A stretch of DNA of 26,967 nt, from the IMG/VR virus record IMGVR_UViG_2541047926_000013, positions 1-26,967 of that record. The stretch is one strand, 5' to 3'. Below, piece after piece: positions 1 through 3,000 of this stretch. The position numbers are program-made. The stretch comes from a virus (taxonomy: Duplodnaviria > Heunggongvirae > Uroviricota > Caudoviricetes). Numbering within the stretch: position 1 is the stretch's first letter; each line of letters starts with the position of its first letter.

Positions 1-3000
1 ATGTGGGTCAATAAGTATATTGACGATTGCACTGATGAGGATTTAAACGATCGTGACTTTATTGCATCAGTTGTTGACCGGGCTATTTTTCATTTCGCGA
101 TTAATAGTATATGTAATCTTGGGGATAATAAAGATGCAATGCCCATTGAACAATGTACTTTTGATGTAGAAACTAAGAATGACCTTCCCTCCACGGTTCA
201 GCTATTTTATGAGGAATCTAAGGATAATGAACCTTTAGCGAATATACATTTTCAAGCAATAGGTTCTGGTTTTTTAACGTTTGTTAATGCCTGCCAGGAA
301 CATGATGACAACAGCTTAAAATTATTTGCTTCGCTGTTAATTTCACTTTCATATTCTAGTGCCTACGCAGATTTATCAGAAACAGTGTATATTAATGAAA
401 ATAATGAGAGCTACCTGAAAGCTCAGTTTGAAAAATTATCTCAACGTGATATGAAGAAGTACCTGGGAGAGATGAAGCGTCTGGCTGATGGGGGAGAAAT
501 GAATTTTGATGGCTATCTGGATAAGATGTCACATCTGGTGAATGAAGGAACGCTCGATCCTGATATTTTAAGCAAAATGCGAGATGCTGCACCACAATTA
601 ATTAGCTTCGCGAAGTCGTTTGACCCAACCTCAAAGGAAGAGATTAAAATACTTACAGACACTTCTAAATTAATTTATGATTTGTTCGGGGTTAAATCGG
701 AGAAATAATATGTGAAGTTCTTCGATAGTATGGAAGGCATTATATAAAAGGACCCAATATTTATTGGGTTCTTTTTTCTCTATCAATGCTATTAGCAGGG
801 AGATATATCACCAGAGTTTAATGTGTGATTTTTTATTTATCGTCGAACCTGGATTGTTTATCATTGGCCTTAACAAAGTTAACGGCTAATAAGATTATTT
901 CCATCACTTCGTGAGAGCTTCATGCCTTGAGAGGATCTCAATTTTCTTTTGCAATGAGACAGGCGCTTCCTGTTGTTATGGTATAGTACCCCGCTATTGA
1001 GCCTCCTGAACAGTGATGCTGAATAACATAACCCCATGATATATCGATAAAATAATCTCTACATTTGAAAATGCACGGTAATTCTGAAATGCAAAAAATC
1101 AACCAAACCAGCGCAATGCCTGAAAAAACTGACGTTCACTGGAGTGGTCGGTTTAGCGTTGCACCAATGCTCGATAGGATGTACCGTTTTTGAAAAACAA
1201 GTAGTTATACACTTTGTGGGAGCCTATTGGGAACCCGGTGTTTTCATTTCAAGGTGTAATCCATGCCGGGCATCAGAATGAGATATAATGAGATTTTTAG
1301 TGTTCCGCTTGAGAGTCTATGATGCTTACCCTAGACGAGATAGGTCAATCTGTACGTAACAATATCCAGTTGATTATTGATCATGTCGGCTTACCTCTTG
1401 CTGTTGGTCCGCTCAGTGATGATGATTACAAGATTCTGTGTGGTGGCTATGGTGAGCTTGAATGGGACTATGCGTTAAGCACCTATGGCAACTCCAGAGA
1501 AAAGTATGAGTTCTGCATAAAACTTGTTCAGCAAGGTCGGGTTCAGGGAATACCATCAGGAGCAGCAATTTGTGTTTATGGGGTTGAAGAAAACATCTTT
1601 CGTATCCATATGATCGAAAGGTTTTCTAGAGAAGATGAATCTCACCCATTGAAAGGGCGCATGGTTTTACTCACTCTTATGAGTGCTTTTATATTTTGTA
1701 AAGCTGTTGAATGTAAAGTTGTCCACATTGTAGAGCCAGTACCAGAACTGGTGCAGTATTACGAGTCTTTTGGTTTCCGCATGGAACAGTGCGGTTATGT
1801 GATGTCTGCAGTCATTGATGAGCTGCAGGATATCTTTCTTAAATTTGCTCAGTAGGTATAGACGAGAAGGGTCTACAAATTGTAGGATACCCGTCCAGAT
1901 TACCTTAAAGGTACATCTATGGCAGTCGTTTTGTGCTTAAACTACTAAGAAACGATGTCACCAATCGACATGATCGATTGGCATAAGTTAGCGAAACAAG
2001 CTAGCTTTAAAGAGAGGGTTAGAGACGCCTTTACTGTCTCGGGAGTTTTCTATGAAAGATCAAAAAGCAACCAAGCCACAGGTTAAGTTCGACACAATGA
2101 AAGCATTCGCAGGTATGGGTGCTGCTGTTGAAGTTCTGATGAAGGCTGCTCCTAATGCGTTCACTCACGCTACTGTCTCTGGTAAAGAGCAGCAGGGTAA
2201 GCTTCGTCGTCGCAAAGCAGCATGATCATAGCTGGTGCTTTTTGAAAACCCGCCTTTAGGCGGGTTTTTTCTTTAGTGATGTTCTTTGCCCTTCTGTTTG
2301 CCTGTTCTGACCTGTTCCCACTCGATACGTCCTTCTTCTCGTCTTTTGTCTATGTATTCCGCAAGATCCTGAATATTGATGCAACGTTTTGCTTTTTGTG
2401 ATGTGCCGATGCGATATGTTGGAACTGGCAACTTACAAGCGTTTGCTTTTGCTTCTGCCGTGGCTGGACTCATGCCAAAGTACTTTTGGCTAACTGCTGA
2501 GAGTTCAATGTTAGGGGTATTGAATTCAGCCATCAGTAAAAACAAGGTGTTCATAATTTTCTCCATCAAAACCGGCTGCACCCGGGAAAATCATAATTCT
2601 GTGCTGGTGGCAGGAATTAATTTCTGCCAGATAGCGGAAACATATTTTGCCTGATGACGGGCATCAGCCAGGGCGTTGTGCCGTTCGCCATCGAAAGGCA
2701 TGTCCATTTTGGGGTCGAATCCGATGAAACGCCCAAGCGTAACGATCGTGCGTACATCGTGGTCATTCCAGTACGCCCATGGACAGATTTGTCCTGCTCG
2801 CTCATAAGCCCCACGTAAAATTACGTTGTCGAAGGTGGCTCCGTTACCCCAGACTTTTAAATATTTCGTATTGTCTGCGTGCCGGTTAATGAAATGGTTC
2901 AGTTCAGAGAGTGCATCGCTGATCGACAAAGTATCATCAATACAGATTGCAGCTCGTGCTTCAGGGCTTTGTTTCAACCACCACAGGATGGTATCGCCGT

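Follow-up and report, generated by a model that had tools for sequence, protein, structure and literature searches.

The left end of a 26,967-nucleotide stretch of Caudoviricetes DNA (IMG/VR record IMGVR_UViG_2541047926_000013; the whole stretch is called the window here) raises the question of where a prophage keeps its integrase when its excisionase gene stands alone. A small gene of the PrtN family closes the leftward early operon there, and no integrase gene lies beside it. A preliminary description of the window had offered two answers, that the integrase and attachment site lie beyond the left edge with cargo genes inserted in between, or that excisionase and integrase sit at opposite prophage ends as in the E. 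coli KplE1 prophage, with the junction near 1856-2272. Four relatives were read for comparison: the chromosomal prophages HH107 and DEC9B, a copy carried by a plasmid, and the free phage mEp460. From the protein family of the gene, the attachment junction and the gene order in these relatives, we conclude that the window very probably comes from a lambdoid prophage integrated in dusA, with the phage attachment site (attP) between int and the excisionase gene, rdfN, and with RdfN as the recombination directionality factor (RDF). The features are collected in Table 1.

The reading of the gene as excisionase-like and as the end of the early-left operon was borne out. The minus-strand open reading frame (ORF) matched PF11112 in Pfam (E 4e-23, 81.7 bits against a cut-off of 24.2) and was assigned to PHROG 1300, 'excisionase' (E 1e-39). 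It is the final gene in a compact minus-strand run, 36 nt after an Rv2179c-like 3'-5' exonuclease gene. The maximal ORF (2273-2581, 102 codons) begins with GTG and lacks a ribosome-binding site. The likely start is the ATG at 2554, giving a gene at 2273-2554 with a 93-aa product, because GGAG lies 6 nt upstream of this ATG, the Prokaryotic Genome Annotation Pipeline (PGAP) chose it in the relatives, and the homologues, tested RdfN included, share the beginning MNT.FLLMAE, in agreement with this start. The PF11112 match, at residues 12-83 of the 102-aa maximal ORF, then covers about residues 3-74 of the 93-aa product. The identical 93-aa protein was found on at least 1000 contigs in a public protein collection. 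The predicted structure of RdfN is a winged helix, with P2 Cox, RdfS and Xis proteins nearest to it. A sequence search of the PDB with the RdfN profile gave nothing meaningful (best SlyA, E 1), and no RdfN model was found in NCBIfam.

The dusA-associated integrases were defined by Farrugia et al. 2015 (PMC4482086). In that work the native dusA 5' end is the outer boundary of dusA islands, 21-bp semi-conserved repeats are described, and a prtN homologue, its role then unknown, was present in 60 of the 94 islands. RdfN was later established as a recombination directionality factor in IMEVchUSA3, a dusA-specific element of Vibrio cholerae and an IncC-mobilisable island: excision was lost on deletion of rdfN and regained by complementation, and a mini-element with int alone needed added rdfN for its excision (Durand et al. 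2021, PMC8409611). Using the IMEVchUSA3 RdfN sequence taken from the S1 Dataset of PMC8409611, the window protein was found to be 59% identical to this tested protein over its whole 76 aa (E 2e-32). The integrase of the relatives was 54% identical to Int of IMEVchUSA3 (E 3e-148). In RefSeq, the mEp460 homologue (gp25) is labelled 'excisionase', pfam11112. By this homology the window gene is, with a high probability that belongs to the explanation as a whole, rdfN, the partner of a dusA-specific tyrosine integrase, a role in excision having been demonstrated for the 59%-identical Vibrio homologue.

The Pfam family is named after PrtN of Pseudomonas aeruginosa, which belongs to it, and many RDFs regulate transcription too (TorI and P2 Cox; PMC2951348), so that the window protein might be only a transcriptional activator like PrtN, with another gene encoding the excisionase. 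We regard this as very improbable, since no RDF besides the 59%-identical homologue is required with Int, and in the relatives no other xis-like gene is annotated beside int, which is followed by DinI. PrtN, moreover, activates pyocin operons, is encoded in the chromosome and is controlled by PrtR, whereas the late genes of the window have their own Q antiterminator and no such activator is called for. A dual role of RdfN, in excision and in transcription, may exist.

The prophage/chromosome junction is at 1167-1174, inside a dusA 5' fragment that comes after yjbM and the native dusA promoter. It was fixed in three ways, from the empty site of K-12, from both junctions in related prophages, and from attP of the free phage mEp460. 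Alignment with K-12 MG1655 showed that the dusA fragment equals the empty site up to ...CACCAATGCTCGA, which ends in the core ATGCTCGA, and then diverges into phage DNA; in the relatives PGAP annotates this fragment as a partial tRNA-dihydrouridine synthase. The far end of HH107 is reciprocal, with a dusA 5' end that is carried by the phage and diverged in sequence, followed by K-12 identity from ATGCTCGAC on. Both junctions share a direct repeat of ~100 bp, which is imperfect, and of the 21-mer around the core (1161-1181) 16 positions of 21 are identical to the integrase-side copy in the relatives. The attP of mEp460 consists of the integrase-side arm, the core and window 1175 onward, and window 1175-2600 matched mEp460 at 98.0% identity over 1426 bases without a gap. 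In the plasmid, a secondary site, phage DNA starts at window 1168. Three independent contexts thus place the end of the phage DNA at 1168-1174. A junction of this kind, ...GCTCCAATGCTTGA, was present in a V. cholerae contig with a 76-aa PF11112 gene whose product is one residue off the tested RdfN. The element is bounded by an orphan dusA 5' end and semi-conserved 21-bp repeats, which is the boundary of RdfN-type elements.

This position bears on both answers of the preliminary description. A lambda-type module displaced by cargo, with integrase and attachment site just beyond the left edge, is backed by nothing but the general expectation from lambda gene order and is refuted by the empty-site alignment, its chance being practically nil: window 1-1174 is chromosomal, comprising yjbM and a dusA 5' end as in the empty K-12 site, zur, yjbJ, dinF and lexA follow farther left in the relatives, and phage DNA stops at 1168-1174 in all three contexts. 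A junction in 1856-2272 is refuted as well, and no more credit can be given to this reading, which would make the 178-aa gene and everything leftward host DNA. That interval is a non-coding-looking stretch between convergent genes, beside a terminator; 1175-2600 is nevertheless one ungapped match to mEp460 that includes gp23 and gp24, and the same cargo accompanies the phage into the plasmid. Further, matches of 1856-2272 to the integrase-side ends of three relatives are at most 8-9 bp long, as expected by chance, and the imperfect dusA repeat of ~100 bp is found instead in 1101-1250. The interval 1856-2272 also contains the conserved 57-aa ORF. The opposite-end layout of the KplE1-like alternative was thus retained, as it was found in HH107, DEC9B, the plasmid copy and mEp460, and its junction was moved to dusA.

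The att arm on the excisionase side begins directly after the core, and its palindrome GTTTTTGAAAAAC starts 12 bp after the core. Conservation of the arm across HH107, DEC9B, the plasmid copy and mEp460 extends over its first ~60 bp (to about 1235), beyond which HH107 diverges. Three more copies of the GGGAACC-type heptamer were located on the other arm, 20-55 bp upstream of the int start codon (DEC9B locus 21473-21510). In the whole 27-kb window the heptamer was unenriched, with 2 matches against 3.0 expected, and the clustering appears only in the reconstructed attP. The heptamers and the palindrome are candidate protein-binding sites on the att arms, judging from their sequence and position. 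At the equivalent arm position the V. cholerae element carries GGGGCC/GGGGCAC (contig ~8181-8200).

The preliminary description had noted the lack of an integrase next to the excisionase gene, and this holds for the whole window: tblastn with the integrase of the relatives gave a best E of 0.99, and Pfam, run on ORFs of at least 250 aa and the repressor, detected none. In all four relatives a 365-aa tyrosine integrase lies across attP. In HH107 this tyrosine recombinase is divergent, with the intact dusA as its neighbour and the PrtN gene about 37-38 kb away. DEC9B shares both the left end and the int-DinI right end, where int again adjoins dusA; the two ends lie 41 kb apart, with a different lambda-like tail module between them. 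In mEp460 the order is int (minus strand), attP, gp23 and gp24 (both plus), 'excisionase' (minus) and exonuclease (minus). Since attP lies between int and the excisionase gene, integration separates the two genes. Read from the layout of the relatives, the integrase of this prophage would probably lie at the far prophage end, divergent next to dusA.

Some points weigh against so complete a layout, as the far end is outside the window, prophage decay is common, and pseudogenes occur in the left arm of some relatives; the source prophage could accordingly be a remnant that has lost its integrase end and kept rdfN as an orphan. This is improbable. The inspected window genes all look intact, both genes are present in each of the four relatives, and among 5426 complete E. 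coli genomes the PrtN gene was found in 741 and the int-dusA junction in 742, which are counts of each feature and not of their overlap. The best match to the whole window among the complete E. coli genomes had 79% coverage.

The plasmid copy represents the same phage type inserted in a ParB/RepB-family gene of the 205-kb F-type plasmid pEND_Eco18005 (NZ_CP126947.1). The insertion site shares only TGCTCGA with the core (plasmid loci ~11860-12120 and 3914-7005). After the integrase gene of this copy comes the dusA 5' mimic carried by the phage, now a pseudogene of 40 codons beside int. The plasmid-borne prophage is possibly transferable by conjugation.

Compared with known systems, the module is closest to RdfN/Int(dusA) of IMEVchUSA3. 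In addition to the family and the identities of both proteins, the two share the insertion target near codon 35 of dusA, an imperfect repeat of like kind, the orphan native dusA 5' end on the int-distal side, and, as read in the relatives, the replacement 5' end on the int side and an int with no xis beside it. They differ in that the carrier here is a lambdoid phage and not an IncC-mobilisable island, that rdfN ends a presumably CI-controlled leftward operon instead of standing behind an AcaCD-responsive promoter, that it points towards the junction, and that the window protein has a 17-residue longer C-terminal helix tail. In mEp460 (NC_019716.1, gp22-gp26) the nucleotide identity of 98% runs from the attP core through gp23, gp24 and gp25 into the exonuclease gene; this is a free phage, however, with attP intact and int about 1.3 kb from xis, and over the remainder of its length the window is a mosaic compared with mEp460, with other head and lysis modules.

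The likeness to KplE1 (CPS-53), HK620 and Sf6, with IntS and TorI (PMC2951348), is one of arrangement. There, integrase and RDF are likewise found across attP and at opposite prophage ends, and torI of KplE1 is likewise last in a leftward operon with homologous yfdP/yfdQ/yfdR. The target here is nonetheless dusA and not the tRNA gene argW, and the RDF gene stops 73 bp short of the prophage end in the case of torI but is separated from it by a 1.1-kb cargo slot here. No BLASTP alignment of RdfN with TorI was obtained at E<=100, and the integrase matched IntS at E 19 at best. By homology, membership is in the RdfN/Int(dusA) family and not in TorI/IntS, and the likeness to KplE1 is architectural only. 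With lambda Int/Xis the module would have in common a tyrosine integrase and a small winged-helix RDF made from the leftward promoter (PL) on induction. The three candidate arm-type sites on the int-proximal arm and the two on the other arm may be compared with lambda P'1-3 and P1-2. In contrast to lambda, xis and int are neither adjacent nor co-transcribed, rdfN being followed by a hairpin, convergent cargo and the att junction. The PI/sib logic of lambda cannot apply, because attP lies between xis and int.

Table 1. Features at the left end of the window, with their coordinates, strands and supporting evidence.
Feature	Position	Strand	Basis
yjbM (DUF2713), chromosomal, outside the prophage	1..708	+	PF10897 E 4e-166; upstream of dusA in K-12 likewise
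Orphaned native dusA 5' end, first ~35 codons, MHGNSEMQKINQTSAMPEKTDVHWSGRFSVAPMLD, severed by prophage insertion	1071..1174	+	Identity to K-12
Attachment-site core ATGCTCGA, crossover region and prophage boundary	1167..1174		Three-way comparison, mEp460 attP, plasmid insertion
Excisionase-side att arm: palindrome GTTTTTGAAAAAC 1186-1198, GGGAGCC 1218-1224, GGGAACC 1229-1235	1175..1318		Candidate integrase arm-type sites; putative binding
Cargo gene 1: 178-aa protein, predicted GNAT acetyltransferase fold, mEp460 gp23 homologue	1319..1855	+	PHROG 4350 (unknown function), AlphaFold, Foldseek
Cargo gene 2: 57-aa ORF, mEp460 gp24 homologue	2052..2225	+	PHROG 2741 (unknown function) E 8e-36; annotated in DEC9B, plasmid copy, mEp460
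G+C-rich hairpin between convergent genes	2244..2269		Canonical intrinsic terminator on +, weaker U-tract on -
rdfN: probable PrtN-family recombination directionality factor (excisionase)	2273..2554	-	PF11112, RdfN homology, PHROG, predicted fold
Rest of leftward early operon: Rv2179c-like 3'-5' exonuclease, Ead/Ea22-DUF551, methyltransferase, YfdR, YfdQ, others	2591..7807	-	Compact same-strand ORFs, Pfam
Candidate PL promoter TTGACA-18-TACATT, directly downstream of the repressor gene	7976..8005	-	Consensus scan; putative function
CI-type repressor, helix-turn-helix and S24 self-cleaving peptidase domains, predicted SOS-responsive switch	8092..8745	-	PF01381, PF00717

With the junction at 1167-1174, the cargo lies inside the prophage, in a slot of ~1.1 kb between the excisionase gene and the junction, and the same cargo moves with the phage into the plasmid. 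The preliminary description had placed a terminator and convergent AT-rich cargo after the PrtN-type gene. Both the hairpin and the cargo are real, but the cargo is only mildly AT-rich (G+C about 40-46%, against about 44-52% for the operon), the lowest values being those of the chromosomal yjbM (33-38%), and the hairpin appears to serve mainly the cargo. It stands directly after the rdfN stop codon with a folding energy of -19 kcal/mol on the plus strand and -18 kcal/mol on the minus strand. Because its long T-run is on the plus strand (TTTTTTCTTT), the minus strand having only UUUU and then C, it would chiefly terminate the convergent cargo transcript, and for the PrtN gene it would be at best a weaker terminator. 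An Rfam scan of 1-3200 found no family at gathering score, and its sub-threshold matches were all on the hairpin.

The 178-aa cargo protein had no sequence match in Pfam, NCBIfam, PADLOC or the PDB, and the same was true of the 57-aa ORF. The AlphaFold model of the 178-aa protein had a predicted local distance difference test score of 93.7, and all of its Foldseek matches were GNAT enzymes; a GNAT acetyltransferase fold is thus predicted with high confidence. Its homologues are ~60-85% identical across Enterobacterales and ~40-45% identical as far as Shewanella. AtaT and TacT were among the structural matches, and a toxin-antitoxin pair was considered and not adopted: in those GNAT toxin-antitoxin systems the antitoxin is, as a rule, encoded upstream, whereas the small ORF here is downstream and 196 nt apart. 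The content of the slot is variable, since HH107 (46949-47997) has a Panacea-domain gene and a hypothetical gene instead, neither of which matches PADLOC. Lying at the edge of the prophage, the region from rdfN to the junction has the look of a moron hot spot. In the V. cholerae dusA island with the near-identical RdfN, an OLD-family ATPase/TOPRIM gene followed by a UvrD-type helicase gene (11266-14827) was seen ~1 kb downstream of rdfN, and this pair is Gabija-like.

The leftward early operon ending in rdfN holds homologues of KplE1 yfdP/Q/R. Within it, a 226-aa ORF with no Pfam match (6647-7327, minus strand) occupies the place where the relatives have a 120-aa yfdP and a frameshifted hypothetical gene, and it could represent a fused gene or an ORF that was called too long. 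Beyond the operon the window continues with replication, Q, lysis, terminase, portal and capsid genes and ends in head genes; in the Pfam run on ORFs of at least 250 aa and the repressor, the matches were to repressor, replication, Q, methylase, terminase, portal and capsid proteins only. The virion modules differ around one recombination module, consisting of the rdfN end and the int-DinI end, which indicates strong mosaicism. HH107 and the head genes of the window (19000-26967) go with a contractile Mu-like tail and baseplate, and the DEC9B virion has a lambda-like siphovirus tail with J, Lom and the NleG7 effector.

The following scheme of excision is one that we infer from this arrangement. 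On insertion, the integrase side would supply a substitute dusA 5' end. In the lysogen, the S24-type CI repressor would hold PL off, and no RdfN would be made. Between PL and int lie the attachment site and then the chromosome, so that transcription from PL cannot extend to int, which would therefore need its own promoter, probably within the integrase-side att arm. Upon SOS induction the leftward operon would be transcribed and RdfN, the product of its last gene, would be made. RdfN would then bind the adjoining att arm and Int the GGGAACC-type arm sites, and recombination of attL with attR would be driven, by which dusA would be restored and the circular phage released. Transcription of the cargo would run in the convergent direction and end at the hairpin.

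The work defining RdfN (PMC8409611) did not settle how rdfN expression is driven in prophage-like dusA elements. In the window, the gene order suggests that rdfN is driven as the 3'-terminal gene of a CI/SOS-controlled PL operon. In KplE1 the int promoter overlaps the att region, and whether excision occurs depends solely on the RDF supply (Panis et al. 2010, PMC2951348); by analogy, excision by the RdfN module is expected to be governed by RDF supply alone as well. A further and rather doubtful extension of the analogy is that RdfN, like TorI in KplE1, might in addition act as a repressor of the integrase promoter and possibly of the dusA promoter that the phage supplies, both of them in the integrase-side att arm. 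If so, prophage induction would transiently rewire the expression of int and dusA.

In conclusion, the arrangement is already known and common: dusA-specific elements with it were described in 2015, proof of its RDF followed in 2021, and ~14% of complete E. coli genomes carry it. It has little discovery value in itself and is a textbook-level variant in which attP lies between int and the RDF gene. Its use is in annotation. A 'pyocin activator PrtN family protein' ending a leftward operon near a truncated dusA is to be read as an excisionase (rdfN), and the prophage boundary belongs at the ATGCTCGA core inside the dusA fragment. Prophage finders that expect adjacent int and xis will set the boundary of such elements wrongly or call them integrase-less.

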